DNA of 64,000 nt, taken from Eledone cirrhosa (taxonomy: Eukaryota). This document shows, in pieces, positions 1,462-22,874 of the stretch. Location of the stretch: positions 378,324,001 through 378,388,000 of the forward strand of contig OZ024742.1 in assembly GCA_964016885.1 (NCBI GenBank), written 5' to 3'. The translations under genes and the position numbers were made by a program. Under the pieces are notes generated by a model. The model worked only from the letters and a program-made list of their open reading frames with translations, did no database searches and was not told the DNA's origin. Within the stretch, counting starts at the first letter, position 1. Each line of letters begins with the position of its first letter.

Positions 1462-3180
1462 AACAGCCCCCACTTATGCCAACCTAGTCATGGGATACCT
1501 GGAAATCACCCTCTACACTAAAGTACTAAACAAATTTGGAAACACTATCCACCTACACATATAAAGGAACTGGAAGCGATATCTAGACGACTGCTTCATC
1601 CTTTGGTACGAAAACATCGAGAAACTTAAAGAATTTCACACCCTTATAAATGGGCTCAACACGAATATTAACTTCACGATGGAATACAGCCATCAACAAC
1701 TCCCCTTCCTCGACATCCTCATTAAGATCCATAACAAAAAAATAGAAACAGACATATACTACAAGCCCACAGACTCCAAGCAATATCTTCCTTTCAACTC
1801 TTGCCACCCTAGACACGTTAAAATTAATATTCCTTACAACTTAGCCAAGAGAATCTGTACTACAGTCTCCAATAAAAACACCTGCTACTTACGGCTACAA
1901 GAACTAAAGGACACACTCATAGGCAGGGACTACCCTGCATCACTAATTTACAATGGAATCCAACGTGCCCTAAAACTCAGTACCCAGGACCTTAGACACC
2001 CTAAAGTAAATCAACCGAAACTAAAAGCTCTTCCATACATCGCCACACCCAACCCCCTCAACAATGAGGCCTTTGACACCATCCTCCAGAACATCCCTGT
2101 GTTGAAAAAGGACCATAGAATGAACCAAATCCTACGAACACACGATATCATAAAGAGCAAAAGACAATCTAAGTCAATGAAAAACATCCTAACACATGCC
2201 AAAGTACTGCCAACCACAACAACGAAACCCACAGTAAAAAAATGCGATAGACCCAACTGTGGCATATGCATCAACCTAATAGAGGGTTCGGAATTCTATT
2301 TCAAAGAAGGACAACGTTTTATAGTAAAACACAATTTCACATGCGCATCAGAAAATCTAATATATGTATTAACTTGCTCAGATTGTCGAGAACAATACAT
2401 AGGCCAGACCAAAAACAACCTCCGCCAACGCATGACTGTCCATAGATCCCAAATTAAAATACGGGAATACAGGAAAATACCACTGAGTGAACACATTGAT
2501 ACCTGTGCCGCCCAAAATCATCCCAACTTCAGAATCTTTCCCCTCTACAAATATAATGCCAGCCACACCCAGCGCATCAGCAAGGAATCTCACTTTATTA
2601 ACAAATACGGACCCCGTCTAAACACTTCTCCCTAAAACGAACCCACAACATACACACGTCAACATACATACCTACATCAGCATACATCTCTATCCACATA
2701 TAAACACAATGACATACGTAAACACACATGTTCTATGGTGCAACACAAATATACACAAATTTGCATACCTTTTGATGTCTATAGATATAAACGTGCCGAC
2801 ACACACACATACATATACGCACACATGCATTGCACACTGATGGGCACATACATATTTGTACACAAGTATTCCAATACGGCAAGGCCTAATGGATTCCCCT
2901 TGCAGTAGTACAATCTGGACACTCACACACACCTTGGTATTATGCCAATACTATCTATCACTTCACACCTTTTATTATTAAGGTTTTTGATGTTCTATTG
3001 AGAGAATCGTTTTTACTGAAAATATCGAATAATATACACCATTTTTACCAGTATCACAAAAATACTAGTCCACACACACACACATTCTCTCCACACACAC
3101 ACACACATATATATATATATACACACACACACACATATATACACACACACATACACACGCGTTCACTAACATACAAAGAG

Positions 3181-3212
<32 letters not shown>

Positions 3213-3462
3213 TTCTCCGTATAAGACAAGAGCTGAAAAATATCTTTTAAAATGTTAAAATATCGCCCACACACGTACAGACACATTCCTACTGACCATC
3301 CCTCTACCACGAATTACTCTGCTACACACACACACACATACTTGTCTTAATAGGCATTTGAACTGTCAACAGGCTGCGGTTCGCACACACATCCCTGCTG
3401 ACCATTATCTCAACAACGAACCTCTTTACTACTACTACACACCCACACACACACATATTTGT
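1462..3462 (+). mobile_element. 5'-truncated Penelope-like retroelement, copy A (RT C-terminus + GIY-YIG + CA-rich 3' region)
   Basis: Collinear with the reverse complement of about 7630-9061 (copy B), starting at AACAGCCCCCACTTATGCC. The shared 3' region ends at ACACATATTTGT. Confidence 0.9.
1463..2635 (+). pseudogene. Penelope-like RT (motifs APTYANL, WKRYLDDCF) / thumb / Cys linker / GIY-YIG endonuclease, with in-frame TAA at 1562-1564
   Basis: ORF 1679-2635 has LPFLDI, YYKPTD, SCHP, KCDRPNCGIC and NLIYVLTC..C...YIGQT...LRQRM..H...E..FI....P.LN. The frame extends upstream to 1463 through one stop (GAA in copy B). Confidence 0.9.
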
Positions 3463-8394: not shown

Positions 8395-8722
8395 TTAGGG
8401 AGAAGTGTTTAGACGGGGTCCGTATTTGTTAATGAAGTAAGATTCCTTGCTGATGCGCTGGGTGTGGGTGAAATTATCTTTAAATTTGTAGAGGGGAAAG
8501 ATTCTGAAGTTGGGATGATTTTGGGCGGCACAGGTATCAATGTGTTCACTCAGTGGTATTTTCCTGTATTCCCGTATTTTGATTTGGGATCTATGGACAG
8601 TCATGCGTTGGCGGAGGCTGCTTTTGGTCTGGCCTATGTATTGTTCTCGACAACCTGAACAAGTTAATACATATATTAGATTTTCCGATGCACATGTGAA
8701 ATTGTGTTTTACTATAAAACGT
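8395..8722 (-). pseudogene. GIY-YIG endonuclease portion of copy B, separated from RT by an internal deletion
   Basis: MTVHRSQIKIREYRKIPLSEH...ESYFINKYGPRLNTSP is near-identical to the C-terminus of copy A. Confidence 0.88.
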
Positions 8723-10235
8723 ATATTATACGTATATTAAACGTTTTACTATAAAACGTATAGTATATGTCTGTTTCTATTTTTTTGTTATGGATCTTAA
8801 TGAGGATGTCGAGGAAGGGGAGTTGTTGATGGCTGTATTCCATCGTGAAGTTAATATTTGTGTTGAACCCATTTATAAGGGTGTGAAATTCTTTAAGTTT
8901 TTCGATGTTTTTGTGCCAAAGGATGAAGCAGTCATCTAGATATTGCTTCCAGTTCCTTTCAATGTGTAAGTGGAGGGTGTTTCCAAATTTGTTTAGGACT
9001 TTAGTGTAGAGGGTGATTTCCAGGTATCCCATGACTAGGTTGGCATAAGTGGGGGCTGTTTTCGTTCCCATAGCGGTCCCAGATTTCTGCCTGTAGGGTT
9101 TGTTATTGAAAACGAAGTAATTGTTCTCCAAGATAAATTTGACTCCCTCTATCACGAATTCTTTTTTGATGCGTTGTGGGAGTTCATTGTGGAAATTATC
9201 CAGCCAGAATTGGATAGCTTCTATTCCTAGGTTGTGGGGGATGTTGGAGTATAGGTTGACTATATCGAACGTCACTAGTAGGGTTTGTTCAGAAAGTGGC
9301 ATATTAGGGAGGTGATTGAGCATATCTAGGTCGTCCCTTATATAGCTTTTGATGTGCTTGAGGAAGGGTTTGAGAAGGGTATCAATGAAGTTGCTAAGAC
9401 GGTGCGTTTCGCAAGCGGGGCCTGCTATTATAGGTCTTAATTTGAGATCATTGGGTGAGGGGACATTGATGACTATGTCTGTGGCTTCCTTGCATGCCTT
9501 ACTTATTGGTTCGCTTTTATGTACTTTAGGGATACCGTAGAAAAGGCTGGATTTACTTGTGAAGTCTGTGATGAAGCTGAATTCCTTGTTAGTGAGTCCT
9601 TCTTTGTATTGGTTGATTAGAGTTTTTAGGTTTCTCATAATTTTCTGTTGATTGTAGTGTTCAGCCTTTTCGTAGTATGTTTCGTTTTCCAAAGTGGAGA
9701 GCGCTAAGTTGATATAGAATTCTGTCTCCATTAGGACTACTGTACTCCCTTTATCAGCCTCTTTAATTGTAATGGTTCTCTCGGTATTTAATCTATTTAA
9801 TTCTTCCCATTCTTTCTTGTTGAGGTTTGGCTTGTGTTTTTGTCTGTGCAAGTGTTGGTAAGGGAAGTTTGTGATGTGTTCACAGAATTCGTCCAGGATT
9901 TTATTTCTACCTTTTGAAGGGGTGTAATTGCTTCTATTTCTGGCAAATGATTCATCTTCATTGTACTGGTCGAATAGTTGTTCACTAAGTCGTAACTTTC
10001 TACAGAAGTCTGTGATGTCTTCCTTCATTTCATAGTAGTTAGGACGTAGTGGGGTCGGTGTGAATTTAAGACCTTTGGAGAGTAAGTTGATAAGGTTGGG
10101 TGTTGGTTCTGCACTAGTAAGATTGATAATTTTTATTACTATCGGTTTCTCCTCCCTGTCTTGTGTTATTTTGTTTGCCTGTATCTGTGTGCTGTGTCTA
10201 AAAAATGGTTGGGGTAGAGGGGTTGTCTGCTGATG
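8712..10235 (-). CDS. Penelope-like reverse transcriptase (ORF2), truncated after ETDIYY by a deletion
   Basis: Motifs IINLT...LLSKGLKFTPTP (upstream of the first ATG at 10028), IKEADKG, YGIPKVHK, LRPII, TFDIVNLYSNIP, GTAMGT..APTYANL, YLDDCF, LPFLD. Frame is open from 10235. Confidence 0.92.
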   Translation of the reverse strand, partial: HQQTTPLPQPFFRHSTQIQANKITQDREEKPIVIKIINLTSAEPTPNLINLLSKGLKFTPTPLRPNYYEMKEDITDFCRKLRLSEQLFDQYNEDESFARNRSNYTPSKGRNKILDEFCEHITNFPYQHLHRQKHKPNLNKKEWEELNRLNTERTITIKEADKGSTVVLMETEFYINLALSTLENETYYEKAEHYNQQKIMRNLKTLINQYKEGLTNKEFSFITDFTSKSSLFYGIPKVHKSEPISKACKEATDIVINVPSPNDLKLRPIIAGPACETHRLSNFIDTLLKPFLKHIKSYIRDDLDMLNHLPNMPLSEQTLLVTFDIVNLYSNIPHNLGIEAIQFWLDNFHNELPQRIKKEFVIEGVKFILENNYFVFNNKPYRQKSGTAMGTKTAPTYANLVMGYLEITLYTKVLNKFGNTLHLHIERNWKQYLDDCFILWHKNIEKLKEFHTLINGFNTNINFTMEYSHQQLPFLDILIKIHNKKIETDIYYTFYSKTFNIRIIYVL

Positions 10236-11476
10236 TTAAGTGGTCTCCTGTGTTTGTTATATTCCTTGTTGTTGTAAAATGTGGTTCGGGTTGGTGGTTG
10301 TAGATTGAATGGGGTGTTCCTGTACTGCGAGTATGGGTGTGTGTTTCTATGTGCCATGTTGTATTGTGGTGTTATAAGTGGCCTACGTTGTTGGTTGTAT
10401 CGTGTGGTGTGGGTTTGTTGTGTATTGTGGAAGCGAGAGTTGAGAAAATGGTAATTACCTTGCTGTCCCCTTGAAGCGGGGAAGTTGTTACATCTATCAT
10501 GGCGGTGGTATCTTTTCCCTATGTTTGACGATGAGGCATCCGCGTAGTAGTTGTGTGATTTGGTATGGTGTCTCCTTGAAGGGGGAAAGTTGTAAATGTC
10601 ATTCTGGGGGAGATGATTTCTTGGGTTTTTGTTCCTTCTTATGGTAGCGAGGTTGGGAAGTTCATCTTCGGTGTGGTGCTTCCTTCTTCGTTTGTTAGAG
10701 GCTTGGGGGTTTGAGAAGTTGTTGTGCGGTTCAGTTATGGGTTTTCCTATTTTTATGAACGGGTTATTGGAGGTGTAATCCGTTTGAAAAGTCGATTCAT
10801 AGTGTAGGAACCAAGCGGCACTTTTTTCCCAGCGTTGAAGGGATTTCAGTTCTTCTCTGTTGCAGTCCCCTTTCCATAATTTGGAGATCTTCTCTACCTT
10901 GGGGCCTTCAGTTTTGTTGTTGATTTCCAGGAGGATCTCTTCATCGATGGTTTTGATTTTTTCCTCATTTGTCTGGGCCCTCAGTTTAAGAAGTTCAATT
11001 TCTGTCTTCATTTTTTCCAATGCCATTCTTTCCCTAAGGTGTCTTTGAGGTTCGGGTTCATTTGGAATGGACTTTATTTGTAGTTTACGGGGGAGAGTTA
11101 GAGGGGTTGAGTTAAGCCATTTTTCATATATCTCTGCTTTGTTGTGATTTTGTATCATCTTCCAGAATGAGAATTTTCTGTCTCTGAGGGATTTGTTCCA
11201 TTTTCGAATTGTTCGAATTTTCATTTTGTGTGAATCAATCTCACATGGTTCTTCGTTGGTTTTTCCTGGGTTGGTAGTAGTGAACATAGTTTGGATAGTA
11301 TCGCAAAGGTTTTGGAGTTTGTCGCCGATTTCGGAGGGTTTGTATCCGGTGGCGGTTTCCTTATTTGTGGAGTCAAGTTTGTCGACCAGCAAAGATAGGT
11401 TGGTGTTGATTTTCTTGAGTTCCTGTAGGATCTCTTCATTTGAGTTGATGAGGGTTGTATCCGTTTTTGTTGGCAT
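10166..11476 (-). CDS. ORF1 of the Penelope-like element: about 436-aa protein with a predicted coiled-coil N-half and a basic, disordered N/R/H/P-rich C-half
   Basis: Uninterrupted ORF between the 5' pLTR and the RT, first ATG at 11476 (MPTK). Heptad-like segments ILQELKKINTNLSLLVDKL and ALEKMKTEIELLKLRAQTNEEKIKTIDEEI. Confidence 0.8.
   Translation of the reverse strand: MPTKTDTTLINSNEEILQELKKINTNLSLLVDKLDSTNKETATGYKPSEIGDKLQNLCDTIQTMFTTTNPGKTNEEPCEIDSHKMKIRTIRKWNKSLRDRKFSFWKMIQNHNKAEIYEKWLNSTPLTLPRKLQIKSIPNEPEPQRHLRERMALEKMKTEIELLKLRAQTNEEKIKTIDEEILLEINNKTEGPKVEKISKLWKGDCNREELKSLQRWEKSAAWFLHYESTFQTDYTSNNPFIKIGKPITEPHNNFSNPQASNKRRRKHHTEDELPNLATIRRNKNPRNHLPQNDIYNFPPSRRHHTKSHNYYADASSSNIGKRYHRHDRCNNFPASRGQQGNYHFLNSRFHNTQQTHTTRYNQQRRPLITPQYNMAHRNTHPYSQYRNTPFNLQPPTRTTFYNNKEYNKHRRPLNISRQPLYPNHFLDTAHRYRQTK
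10199..10205 (-). promoter_or_regulatory. Putative -1 ribosomal frameshift heptamer U_UUU_UUA linking ORF1 to RT
   Basis: ORF1 codons CAT TTT TTA GAC; the -1 frame continues AGA CAC AGC... without a stop into the RT. Confidence 0.65.
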
Positions 11477-11797
11477 TTTCTGTATCTCGTGTGAGGATAT
11501 GATAGTTAAAAGAATAGAGGTGTAACACACAAGTTATTATATATTGGTAAACGGAATAGAAAATGCTGACAAATTGTTCACAGTTGAAAAATGGTTTAAT
11601 TAGGACTAAAAGAGTATTAGTGATTGTATGGGTTAGTATTCAGTTGTGGTTTTCAGTTTTTAAGTTTTTACCGGTTGCGCATTTCTAAATGCTTTTCAAA
11701 AATAATTTTGAGATAGAGTGTCCGTGCTGTTTGCTCTGATCTGATTAGTTTTGGGAATTCTACCTGTTTTTATGTTAAAAAAGTGGCTCCAATTTGC

Positions 11798-11904
<107 letters not shown>

Positions 11905-12407
11905 TTGTTGTGAAAGAGCCATTTCTCAATCTTGGACGCAAAACCAATTTTTTATTCACATGACCTCTACCGACCAATCAAAATTGTTTTCACCACAATA
12001 ATTTTTGCTGGAGCCACTTTTTTAACATAAAAACAGTCTTGGCGCAAAATCAATTTTTTACATTCACATGACCTCTACCGACCAATCAAAATTGTTTTGA
12101 CCACAAGAATTTTTGCAAATTGGAGCCACTTTTTTAACATAAAAACAGGTAGAATTCCCAAAACTAATCAGATCAGAGCAAACAGCACGGACACTCTATC
12201 TCAAAATCATTTTTGAAAAGCATTCATTTAGAAATGCGCAACCGGTAAAAACTTAAAAACTTAAAACCACAACTGAATACTAACCCATACAATCACTAAT
12301 ACTCTTTTATTCCTAATTAAACCATTTTTCAACTGTGAACAATTTGTCAGCATTTTCTATTCCGTTTACCAATATATAATAACTTGTGTGTTACACCTCT
12401 ATTCTTT

Positions 12408-12450
<43 letters not shown>

Positions 12451-13063: not shown

Positions 13064-14612
13064 TATATTTATTTATTAGCCACAGGGGCACAAAAGAAGG
13101 GGACAAATACAAATAGGGGAAGTTTACATACAATAAAAACGTGTAAAATGTTATCACAGATGGAATTTAAAAAGTTAGTCGATTTTCCCCAATAGAGGGG
13201 ACAGTTTATATGGGTAACACATACCCCCGAAAAAAAATGTGCAACCCTCATCTCCAGGAGTACGAAGAGTTTGTACTCCCTTCCTCTCCTCCTCCTTTTC
13301 CTCAACCTACAGGCTGATATAGAGAGAAGGCCCATTCACTCGGGCCATTCTCGCCACTTTCACCCACCTTTCATAAAACTTGCTGGGGTACAGCACCTCT
13401 CTCTCCATCCTGATTCTTCTACCAAAGTGGTATTTGAAAAAAAGAATCAGTTGTTGGCCGGAGAGAAAGGTGTCTGACCTCAGCCCTTTCAACCTTGTCC
13501 ACCATACAACCTCTTTCGCCATAGCTATCACACAAAGGAAAACCGCCTCTCCTTCGTTTTTGAAGGAGGGTGGCGGTTTGATCATGACAATGGACTCGGT
13601 GGTCAACTGGACTGGTCCCACCCGCGACAATAGTCGTTCTACATAGCCCCACAGGTCAGTGACGCCCGGGTAGTGTATGAATGCGTGCGCGACGGTTTCT
13701 TCGTCTTGCACGCACCTCTGACAGATCTTTTTTGCAGGGTCCCTGCCCGGGCGCCCATGTCTGTAGAGCTTGTCTCGAACTGGTAGAGCTCCTCGGTAGC
13801 ACTGCCAGGCCAGGGACTTTTGGAAGTTGTCCATCGGTCCCGGGCGGAAGGTCCTACCGAACAGACTGGAGTTTAACCGAGCGCGTCGTCGCACTTGTTG
13901 CGGACTAACCCTCTATAGAATGACGAAGTGGAGTCTCCACTGATCGCCGGGTCCGCCTGCCAGAGGGCTGTGAGCGCCTGAGCACATTCGATGTGCTAGT
14001 CGCCCATTTTCCTCGGTCTTTGCTTGACCCAGGACTGCAGCTCGGTCAGCGAGACGAGTCGTGGGAAGGCTCGCCTCACGAACGGGGCCCACACCGGTTG
14101 TCCGGTGAGGAATACGTACAGATGCCGCAGCCTGAGCGCGTGTTTGCGCATCGTCAACCACGGCATCCCCAGCCCTCCGTTAGAAGGGTGTTGGCAGCAG
14201 ATGGATCTTCTCACCAAAGGAGCCCGCCTCTTCCAAAGGAATTGGCGGAGCGCGCGCTCCATTTTGGCGAGCGTTTTGGCTGGACAAGGCACGACGGTCA
14301 AGCGGTAGTAGATGGCGGACGCTATAAAAGTGTTCGCCACCTCCGCTCGACCTTTCAAGGATAGTTTGCACTCGGCCCACTTCTGGGTGAGTGCAAACAC
14401 CTTGGCCGTCACTTCGTTCCAGTTCTTCTCCACCTGGAGGTCCGGACCAAACCAGACCCCGAGCAGCTTTACCGGTCCTTCCGTCCAGCGTCCGACGACG
14501 CTATCGGAAGGCATCGGTCTGCCTCTCCACGATCCGAGTTGCAAACCGATGGACTTGTCCCGGTTCAGCTTCGCTCCTGTGAGACTTTCGTATTCCTTCA
14601 GTAAGGTGCCGA
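13060..14612 (-). mobile_element. 5'-truncated L1/Tx1-clade LINE: RT C-terminus + zinc-knuckle region + 3'UTR (frameshifted)
   Basis: YESLTGAKLNRDKS, VKLLGVWFG, LSLKGRAEVAN, QFLWK, GGLGMP, then WQCYRGALPV and CQRCVQDEETVAHAFIH. 3' end AATAAATAAAA abuts (TA)n and 5' end abuts (GATA)n; GC-rich relative to flanks. Confidence 0.88.
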
Positions 14613-14651
<39 letters not shown>

Positions 14652-14814
14652 CAAATACATGAGTCCCGGGTTTAATCGGGGGCAACCACACTTAGTAAGG
14701 TACTCAATATATTACTAGAGTGTAAATATCACATTTAATAATGGCTTCTACAGGACTAGAAGTGTTTCACTCAGAAGAAATTATCAGACAGTAAGGTGTT
14801 GTTAGAAATCCCTT

Positions 14815-17364: not shown

Positions 17365-17415
<51 letters not shown>

Positions 17416-17421
<6 letters not shown>

Positions 17422-17690
17422 TAAAAGGAAAAGAAAATGCTGACAAAATGTTCCCAGTGAAAAATAGTTTAATTAGGAATAAGTAAAATTAGTAATAGTA
17501 TTGGTTAGTATTCAGTTTTGGTTTTAAGTTTTACCGGTTGCGCATTTCTAATGCATTTCAGAAATAATTTAAAAACTTAAAACCAAAACTGAATACTAAC
17601 CAATACTATTACTAATTTTTACTTATTCCTAATTAAACTATTTTTCACTGGGAACATTTTGTCAGCATTTTCTTTTCCTTTTACCAATAT
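17416..17690. mobile_element. Solo inverted pLTR pair of a sister Penelope-like subfamily inserted in (TA)n
   Basis: TTGGTAAAAGGAAAAGAAAATGCTGACAAAATG... resembles pLTR 7281; 17571-17690 is the reverse complement of 17416-17532. Confidence 0.85.
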
Positions 17691-20753: not shown

Positions 20754-22617
20754 TGAGAGATGGGAGAGATGGAGGCAGTGACTGTGGGAGTTTGGTTCCT
20801 TTGTGTTCTGACCTGGTGTGTATGAGAGATGGGGAGAGCGGGAGAGGTGGAGGCAGTGACTGTGGGAGTTTGGTTCCTTTGTGTTCTGACCTGGTGTGTA
20901 TGAGAGATGGGGAGAGCGGGAGAGGTGGAGGCAGTGACTGTGGGAGTTTGGTTCCTTTGTGTTCTGACCTGGTGTAAATGAGAGATGGGGAGAGTGGGAG
21001 AGGTGGAGGCAGTGACTGTGGGAGTTTAGTTCCTTTGTGTTCTGACCTGGTGTAAATGAGAGATGGGGAGAGTGGGAGAGGTGGAGGCAGTGACTGTGGG
21101 AGTTTGGTTCCTTTGTGTTCTGACCTGGTGTAAATGAGAGATGGGGAGAGCGGGAGAGGTGGAGGCAGTGACTGTGGGAGTTTGGTTCCTTTGTGTTCTG
21201 ACCTGGTGTGTATGAGAGATGGGGAGAGCGGGAGAGATGGAGGCAGTGACTGTGGGAGTTTGGTTCCTTTGTGTTCTGACCTGGTGTGTATGAGAGATGG
21301 GGAGAGAGGGAGAGATGGAGGCAGTGACTGTGGGAGTTTAGTTCCTTTGTGTTCTGACCTGGTGTGTATGAGAGATGGGGAGAGCGGGAGAGATGGAGGC
21401 AGTGACTGTGGGAGTTTGGTTCCTTTGTGTTCTGACCTGGTGTGTATGAGAGATGGGGAGAGCGGGAGAGATGGAGGCAGTGACTGTGGGAGTTTGGTTC
21501 CTTTGTGTTCTGACCTGGTGTGTATGAGAGATGGGGAGAGAGGGAGAGATGGAGGCAGTGACTGTGGGAGTTTAGTTCCTTTGTGTTCTGACCTGGTGTG
21601 TATGAGAGATGGGGAGAGCGGGAGAGATGGAGGCAGTGACTGTGGGAGTTTGGTTCCTTTGTGTTCTGACCTGGTGTATATGAGAGATGGGGAGAGCGGG
21701 AGAGATGGAGGCAGTGACTGTGGGAGTTTGGTTCCTTTGTGTTCTGACCTGGTGTGTATGAGAGATGGGGAGAGCGGGAGAGGTGGAGGCAGTGACTGTG
21801 GGAGTTTGGTTCCTTTGTGTTCTGACCTGGTGTAAATGAGAGATGGGGAGAGCGGGAGAGATGGAGGCAGTGACTGTGGGAGTTTGGTTCCTTTGTGTTC
21901 TGACCTGGTGTGTATGAGAGATGGGGAGAGCGGGAGAGGTGGAGGCAGTGACTGTGGGAGTTTGGTTCCTTTGTGTTCTGACCTGGTGTGTATGAGAGAT
22001 GGGGAGAGAGGGAGAGATGGAGGCAGTGACTGTGGGAGTTTAGTTCCTTTGTGTTCTGACCTGGTGTGTATGAGAGATGGGGAGAGCGGGAGAGATGGAG
22101 GCAGTGACTGTGGGAGTTTGGTTCCTTTGTGTTCTGACCTGGTGTATATGAGAGATGGGGAGAGCGGGAGAGATGGAGGCAGTGACTGTGGGAGTTTGGT
22201 TCCTTTGTGTTCTGACCTGGTGTGTATGAGAGATGGGGAGAGCGGGAGAGATGGAGGCAGTGACTGTGGGAGTTTAGTTCCTTTGTGTTCTGACCTGGTG
22301 TGTATGAGAGATGGGGAGAGCGGGAGAGATGGAGGCAGTGACTGTGGGAGTTTGGTTCCTTTGTGTTCTGACCTGGTGTATATGAGAGATGGGGAGAGCG
22401 GGAGAGATGGAGGCAGTGACTGTGGGAGTTTGGTTCCTTTGTGTTCTGACCTGGTGTAAATGAGAGATGGGGAGAGTGGGAGAGGTGGAGGCAGTGACTG
22501 TGGGAGTTTGGTTCCTTTGTGTTCTGACCTGGTGTATATGAGAGATGGGGAGAGCGGGAGAGATGGAGGCAGTGACTGTGGGAATTTGGTTCCTTTGTGT
22601 TCTGACCTGGTGTATAT
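20754..22617 (+). repeat. 78-bp minisatellite, about 24 copies, G-rich plus strand
   Basis: Unit ATGAGAGATGGGGAGAGCGGGAGAGATGGAGGCAGTGACTGTGGGAGTTTGGTTCCTTTGTGTTCTGACCTGGTGTGT. Confidence 0.97.
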
Positions 22618-22874
22618 GTATATATTTATTTAGAGCAGCAGATGTTATATAAACCACCACCTCTCCTCCACCATAGCTACTCCATATATACCCGAGACTA
22701 TAGTATGAGTAAATGACACTCGTTCAAGATGCCACAAAGTGGGATCGAAACTGCGACCTTGTGATTGGTAGGCCTTGTCAACGGAAATGATAGACAGGAA
22801 GATATAAAACTTAATTTGTTTGGGGTTATATCCCCTTATTGATTAAACAGAAACTTTGATGTTGACATTTAATG

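Follow-up and report, generated by a model that had tools for sequence, protein, structure and literature searches.

How a reverse transcriptase (RT) is produced when its frame has no start codon ahead of conserved coding sequence is the question raised by an element on contig OZ024742.1 of Eledone cirrhosa (assembly GCA_964016885.1, forward-strand positions 378,324,001 to 378,388,000). This whole stretch of 64,000 nucleotides (nt) is called the window here, and coordinates are counted from its first letter. On its minus strand, an upstream open reading frame (ORF1) is overlapped by a −1 frame encoding the RT of a Penelope-like element (PLE). Judged from the conservation of the junction in DNA, the two are very probably joined by programmed −1 ribosomal frameshifting at a slippery heptamer, U_UUU_UUA. 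The parts of the junction are the following.

10166..11476, minus strand: ORF1, 436 aa, from the ATG at 11476 to the TAA at 10168-10166
10236..10238, minus strand: TAA closing the −1 (RT) frame upstream, 10 codons ahead of the slippery site
10199..10205, minus strand: slippery heptamer U_UUU_UUA, Phe-Leu in ORF1 and Phe-Phe in the RT frame
10166..10198, minus strand: unstructured 30-nt spacer (10 codons) plus the ORF1 stop TAA, the proposed roadblock position
10050..10130, minus strand: PLE N-terminal motif IINLT...KGLKFTPTP, ahead of the first in-frame ATG
8761..10235, minus strand: RT part of ORF2, −1 frame

A first-pass annotation of the window had placed the heptamer in X_XXY_YYZ phase, and ORF1 does read CAT TTT TTA GAC, with TTTTTTA at 10205-10199. 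The −1 frame had been said to open 10 codons before the site, where the TAA (10238-10236) is found, and to encode the PLE N-terminal motif in a stretch devoid of ATG; the motif starts at 10130 and the first in-frame ATG follows further downstream, at 10028. In the −1 frame there is a match to RVT_1 (E 8e-8), and in the frame at 8736-8395 one to GIY-YIG (E 3e-7). In the window copy, 38 nt at 8760-8723 stand in place of 552 nt encoding the RT thumb, a linker and a zinc finger. Owing to this loss, RT and endonuclease (EN) are not in one frame there, and the copy is dead. The earlier description as an endonuclease-bearing PLE can be made more exact, as a Neptune-type element: an RT-CxxxxCxxC-GIY-YIG frame of 784 codons is intact in many genomic copies, and six of 20 stretches picked for a long RT frame also keep an intact ORF1 frame of 455 codons.

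Conservation was assessed first in the 3.0-Gb assembly itself, counting an exact 33-mer with six T and the same flanks for other run lengths. The main family (A) has 341 copies with six T, 5 with seven and 9 one base shorter; the majority of seven-T copies, named earlier as the finding that would speak against a frameshift, does not exist. Hundreds of 99%-identical copies share the offset with both frames intact. Two further families, found by a search with a distant ORF1, are B (ORF1/ORF2 of 409/775 codons) and C (427/777 codons); the three are mutually 56-58% identical in ORF2, and B and C are 35-47% identical to the main family in ORF1. Family B has the in-phase U_UUU_UUA at 18 of 19 distinct places with the junction found, one further place being unmatched, and family C has exact T6 in 94 of the first 100 listed copies of 192 matches. 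That a single-ORF element has simply decayed, through a mutation or an error of assembly, might be suspected from the downstream break in the window copy and from the error-proneness of homopolymers. Since the same offset is shared by the intact copies, by families B and C and by 16 foreign loci (see below), this explanation is already refuted and its probability is negligible.

The same counts bear on slippage of RNA polymerase or RT, by which a U would be added in a minority of transcripts, the 7-U ones, which would then carry the fusion as one frame. Five T7 copies do exist, and RT slippage at U6A is reported for human immunodeficiency virus (HIV; PMC5737442). However, T7 is rarer than T5 (5 versus 9) and is found in none of the first 100 listed family C copies, although fusion RNA copied in cis would enrich it; moreover, slippage requires neither codon phase nor stop spacing. 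The instability of a neighbouring C-run, 40 nt past the slippery site of family C (L213, 1696-1783, and its copies), could be taken in favour of slippage: it varies in about half of the copies while T6 is fixed. In a hand count of the first 100 listed copies, 48 had the common length and 52 differed (17 fused, 14 unchanged, 21 other). These variants are spread evenly over the three frames, and we regard polymerase slippage as highly unlikely. Some of them are fused frames of 1,140-1,180 codons; as they form no single fused lineage, an in-frame master lineage was rejected.

The foreign set comprised 119 loci from other assemblies, 45 of which contain the region of the RT N-terminal motif. An in-phase TTTTTT(A/G) was present in 15 of 15 loci with at least 40% RT identity and the junction in hand, and also in L088 (38%), which brings the total to 16 foreign loci at 38-55% identity, or about 13 families. 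L095 (38%) and the degraded L163 (39%) lack an in-phase heptamer; L071 and L109 end before the site. On one side of the heptamer is a homologous ORF1, on the other an RT-GIY-YIG frame of Neptune type. In tblastn, an ORF1 homologue lies directly upstream in 11 of the 16 loci, the others being short or broken there, and the CxxC-GIY-YIG pattern is found in 11 and partially in one. Each of the 17 overlaps (this element plus the 16 foreign loci) holds the heptamer exactly once, against a background of 5 in-phase T6(A/G) in 16,102 codons, or about 0.7% per overlap. The seventh base is A in 14 sites, G in three and C in none; hence every site places a UUR Leu codon in the A site. In L068, L073, L074, L085 and L088 a stop of the RT frame stands immediately ahead of TTT TTT. 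Heptamer and frame offset are thus kept in three families of this genome and in 16 foreign loci, which was the check proposed at the outset, and this conservation supports the suggestion that ORF1 and an ORF1-RT-EN fusion would be made in a gag-pol-like way.

In a quick tree of fetched loci only, built with no named Neptune references and omitting L082, L083, L084 and L096 for their short alignments, the heptamer loci form one branch (SH-aLRT 98) that includes L095. Most relatives at 36% RT identity or less whose flanks are long enough carry a single frame of about 1,000 codons; T6A in L091, L093 and L108 was set aside as a coding by-product because it lies inside single long ORFs. L157 carries the site and falls outside the clade, on a long branch. 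On these comparisons the conserved site most likely defines a two-ORF branch of Neptune-type elements. L150 (3808-6800) and L157 (3828-6811) are tandem two-frame PLEs outside the clade with telomere-like repeat pairs and in-phase heptamers (G_GGU_UUU and U_UUU_UUA, respectively); no endonuclease motif was found in either stretch.

Several observations weigh against frameshifting. Three of the 17 sites read U_UUU_UUG, outside the rule, stated in the excerpt of PMC3561942, that the Z position is never G in eukaryotes; the same excerpt gives about 0.1% frameshifting for U6A alone in HIV-1, and a further stimulus would therefore be needed. L095 reads U_UUU_CGA and has an in-frame ATG; a single-tRNA slip at a slow Arg codon is possible at this site (713-755). 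Finally, 12 of the 17 sites resemble a splice acceptor, and start codons are available to the RT frame in some families; each of these leads to an explanation of its own.

With TTTTTTAG, the reading of those 12 sites, as acceptor, a spliced mRNA would bring the RT frame together with ORF1 or with a leader. The AG after the T run is also found in families B and C, and spliceosomal introns occur in PLEs (PMC8557442, legend to Fig. 1). On the other hand, the in-phase heptamer is kept without AG in five of the 17 sites, a consensus donor of the needed phase is absent from this ORF1 and from seven of 11 foreign loci scanned, and in the remaining scanned loci its position is not shared. An acceptor also leaves the Phe-Leu in ORF1 phase and the 10-codon stop spacing unexplained. 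Splicing is judged very unlikely. In three contig sets, two contigs cross the site unspliced, and no joint at the site is among the 15 listed of 19; as these sets may be DNA, they carry no weight for or against splicing.

Alternatively, translation of RT-EN could begin independently, at an AUG or a near-cognate codon, whether through reinitiation, through leaky scanning or on a shorter transcript; the heptamer would then encode no more than a required Phe-Leu or Phe-Phe. In family C an in-frame ATG stands 11 codons past the site, L096 has one as well, and family B has GTG; six other loci have a Met within the N-terminal motif, several relatives have NTG-G codons, and P0003-P0008 are called with starts just before PKIINL. 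The main family, however, has no ATG ahead of the motif, and 15 of the 16 foreign loci have none between the site and IINL. A constraint on the protein alone predicts T_TTT_TTR in about 8% of cases, whereas it is observed in 17 of 17. AUGA-type stop-start coupling at the ORF1 stop was not found in the DNA loci. As the general mode of expression an independent start is given very little probability, though it may be a second route in some families.

Nor is the site explained by codon preference. TTC and CTN are preferred in the element (TTT is 23% of Phe and TTR 17% of Leu), and Phe-Leu pairs elsewhere read T_TTT_TTR in three of 39 cases; this bias opposes TTTTTTA. A bias towards R-A-Y-G-A is seen at −5 to −1 of the 17 sites, and 15 of 17 have NAU (Asp, His, Asn or Tyr) as the codon preceding Phe, compared with an A frequency of 43% at the same codon position of ORF1 tails.

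Measured against a canonical −1 signal, the conserved in-phase X_XXY_YYZ heptamer within the ORF overlap is present, and a stable hairpin or pseudoknot 5-9 nt downstream is absent. That no stimulatory hairpin follows had been noticed in the first-pass annotation and holds clade-wide: the 139 nt after the site fold at z −0.2, no better than shuffles, and among 17 sites and three outsiders no conserved structure was found 3′ or 5′ of the site. A clear adjacent hairpin occurs in L096 alone (z −4.0), with L072 borderline; a crude pseudoknot scan covering local pairing was positive in two of 14.

Comparison with known sites is instructive in this respect. HIV-1 gag-pol has the identical U_UUU_UUA, read as FL or FF and followed by Arg (excerpts of PMC3561942 and PMC6547452), and makes its structural protein in excess over the enzyme, for which a counterpart would be expected here. 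In contrast to this element, HIV-1 needs a downstream stem-loop; ORF1 has no Gag fold, zinc knuckle or protease. The Semliki Forest complex 6K/TF site, a conserved U_UUU_UUA likewise found by phylogenetic conservation, shifts efficiently with no compact 3′ structure, the first 14 nt being important; it differs in being viral, in its short transframe product and in that no fixed stop spacing is mentioned in the excerpt of PMC2569925. A precedent is HIV-1, in which P-site slippage occurs at a slowly read codon when Leu-tRNA is scarce, the hungry-UUA route (PMC6547452, excerpt). By analogy, the A-site UUR Leu codon (or CGA) fits P-site slippage at a slowly decoded codon. The clade supplies many natural U_UUU_UUR sites, a large series in which no RNA structure is conserved.

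In the proposed mechanism, the −1 shift at U_UUU_UUA likely yields RT-endonuclease fused to ORF1, a protein of about 1,200 aa, and most ribosomes likely terminate 10 codons past the site and release the ORF1 protein. The latter would be in excess over RT, as an abundant RNA-binding protein or, from its position and composition, a ribonucleoprotein scaffold. Its N-terminal half is predicted to be a helical bundle (pLDDT about 90 over aa 81-230), and its tail is disordered, basic and rich in Asn, Gln, Arg and His. No match to ORF1 was found in Pfam, in the Atlas, or at E 0.001 or better among PDB and viral folds. An ORF1 profile finds 1,263 clusters of relatives at 50% identity, none of the best 150 being longer than 553 aa. 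Phe-Leu lies within the last 45 aa of 76 of the 97 proteins of at least 330 aa, compared with 12 of 194 control windows.

The distance from Phe-Leu to the end of the protein was examined in 107 proteins of at least 300 aa; 24 have no Phe-Leu near the end and two have two, which leaves 81. The stop follows after exactly 10 residues in 26 of these and sooner in one, whereas a null model with the RT frame kept open gives 3.5% at 10 and 56% below 10. Among all 150 best matches, 102 have the Phe-Leu, 30 at a spacing of 10 and three below it. The 10-residue class is scattered on the tree (12 changes), with a median domain identity of 32% and unrelated tails; it is more clustered than in shuffles, so that kinship contributes. 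In DNA, the 10-codon spacing is seen in this element (30 nt), L070, L076/L085, L079/L084 and L096. A second peak at 20-22 residues (14 of 51) was noticed post hoc. Trp at +11 as a substitute for the stop was rejected as a general feature (three of 54). In a subclass of proteins, Phe-Arg stands 9-11 residues ahead of the stop instead (P0110, P0121, P0129, P0142, P0153, P0170, P0184 and P0256).

Two ribosomes that collide are separated by no fewer than ten intervening codons, and disomes build up at stop codons (10.1101/2023.02.01.526718, excerpt). Given the equality of the two distances, a terminating ribosome may serve as roadblock: one at the ORF1 stop would park the ribosome behind it with the A site on UUA, and slow decoding of UUA or UUG, or of CGA in a subclass, would help the slip. 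We infer such a collision as stimulator only tentatively and consider it doubtful. Similarly, a clade-wide, structure-free −1 frameshift in which the ribosome itself is the stimulator, with the stop 10 codons (or multiples) after U_UUU_UUR, is offered as a speculation that may well fail. If true, RT output would track ribosome load and termination speed. The fixed 10-codon stop distance offers a clean and inexpensive way to learn whether −1 frameshifting can be programmed by a ribosome that is terminating or collided.

A number of points speak against the collision step in particular. The 81 ORF1 proteins come as sequences outside their DNA context, and 55 of them do not have the 10-codon spacing; in L074 the spacing is 1, and in families B and C it is 20 and 19 residues. 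The database proteins P0058 and P0051 hold ORF1 and RT in one frame. The peak at 20-22 may merely reflect the K-I-I-N codons of ORF2, and a floor at 10 codons could also come from a need for peptide length, from control of decay or from a hidden RNA signal. In SARS-CoV-2 a nearby 0-frame stop is explained by refolding of the pseudoknot, with lower ribosome load helping (PMC8168617, excerpt); the collision model predicts the reverse, namely that the obstacle is the terminating ribosome and that high load helps. A full-text literature search returned no report of a terminating or collided ribosome at a fixed stop spacing programming −1 frameshifting, as far as the excerpts returned extend.

The assignment to Neptune-type, EN-bearing (EN+) PLEs is proposed from the likeness of finger, linker and EN, judged by eye. 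ORF2 has KGLKFTPTP (GxKF motif) and EADKG (DKG motif), as expected of a PLE-type RT, as well as a C-terminal GIY-YIG domain (PF01541) with CCHH-type residues that is in frame with RT in intact copies. The Neptune clade has a CX2-5CxxC finger with a long spacer to the GIY Cys; here CDRPNCGIC is followed by about 25 aa to the next Cys, like the Neptune rows and unlike the Nematis and Poseidon rows in Fig. S2 of PMC8557442 (by eye). The remaining parts of the element and its surroundings are as follows.

11821..12414, plus strand: inverted copy of the element 3′ end (pseudo-long terminal repeat, pseudo-LTR, plus short tail), head-to-head with the element
11541..11791, minus strand: direct 5′ pseudo-LTR, a copy of the 3′ end, matching that of the intact copy L053 at 98%
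8723..8760, minus strand: 38-nt filler in place of the 552 nt that encode thumb, linker and CxxxxCxxC finger
8395..8722, minus strand: GIY-YIG endonuclease with CCHH-type residues
7279..8394, minus strand: 3′ untranslated region rich in microsatellites, plus 3′ pseudo-LTR ending in a (TA)n run
1462..3248, plus strand: second copy of the same family, 5′-truncated, about 95%, holding the thumb, linker and EN lost by the main copy

Direct and inverted 5′ copies thus flank the main element, as pseudo-LTRs do. A (TA)n run is reached by the 3′ ends in the window, L052 and L053 and by loose ends at 11538, in line with an insertion bias for microsatellites and (TA)n. The element departs from the canonical description in the number of its ORFs: EN+ PLEs are described as single-ORF (PMC8557442, excerpt), and here 341 copies and their relatives have two overlapping frames, a separate conserved ORF1 overlapping the RT frame at a slippery site. 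The view of EN+ PLEs as single-ORF elements would accordingly be revised to admit a widespread clade with an unnamed ORF1 family and a gag-pol-like switch. Fig. 1 of PMC8557442 could show an optional ORF1 for Neptune, and its legend states that ORF1 of some PLEs is separable by a frameshift with a pseudoknot. Such two-ORF PLEs have, as here, a coiled or helical ORF1 upstream of an RT joined by a frameshift. Presumably the legend refers to Athena/Terminon and Coprina. The Athena and Coprina PLEs are endonuclease-less and telomeric and have a pseudoknot; the clade described here, in contrast, is GIY-YIG-bearing and interspersed, has no conserved pseudoknot and does not belong to them. No telomeric repeat pairs were found in the 16 foreign heptamer loci.

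No slippery site in an EN+ PLE was described in a full-text literature search, which did not extend to Repbase, the 2006 survey of PLEs or the 2017 paper on Terminons; nor was an EN+ PLE frameshift found in the excerpts of PMC6431247, PMC3846280, 10.64898/2026.07.22.740005, PMC5009743, PMC3849965, PMC5408684 and 10.1101/2024.03.12.584696. RT homologues include gene models of Mytilus and Saccostrea, and none was found among the viral contigs searched. The sequence ahead of the N-terminal motif is ERFFR in P0051, and the ORF1-like part of P0089 closes with RFL. P0022, P0051, P0089 and P0015 are annotated within host genes (a Toll-like receptor model) or as a bacterial protein of a metagenome-assembled genome (MAG), likely through mis-joined gene models and host contamination. 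Gene callers miss the ORF1/RT switch or fuse its frames into host gene models.

A hammerhead is another point of difference from other Neptune and EN+ PLEs: the CUGANGA core is absent from the repeats of this family and Rfam gave no hammerhead match, the matches in the Rfam scan being driven by microsatellites only. Strings resembling the core stand beside the ORFs of foreign relatives (L069 57/215 and 3756/3914, L070 4101, L072 2937, L073 3277, L076 3049 and L096 3206), for which Rfam gave no confirmation. The pseudo-LTR end at window 11473-11760 has a contig depth about 30 times that of the ORF body, which suggests that solo or non-autonomous derivatives are numerous. At 17415-17690 stand short head-to-head remnants of this pseudo-LTR, with (TA)n. 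Elsewhere in the window, minus-strand fragments at 13307-14691 resemble what we take to be the C-terminal part of ORF2 of another non-LTR retrotransposon. A minisatellite of 78 nt occupies 20762-22618 (23.8 copies, 97% matched), and 24825-64000 is a 39-kb tandem satellite with a 51/52-nt unit, about 758 copies and a higher-order period of 103 nt.

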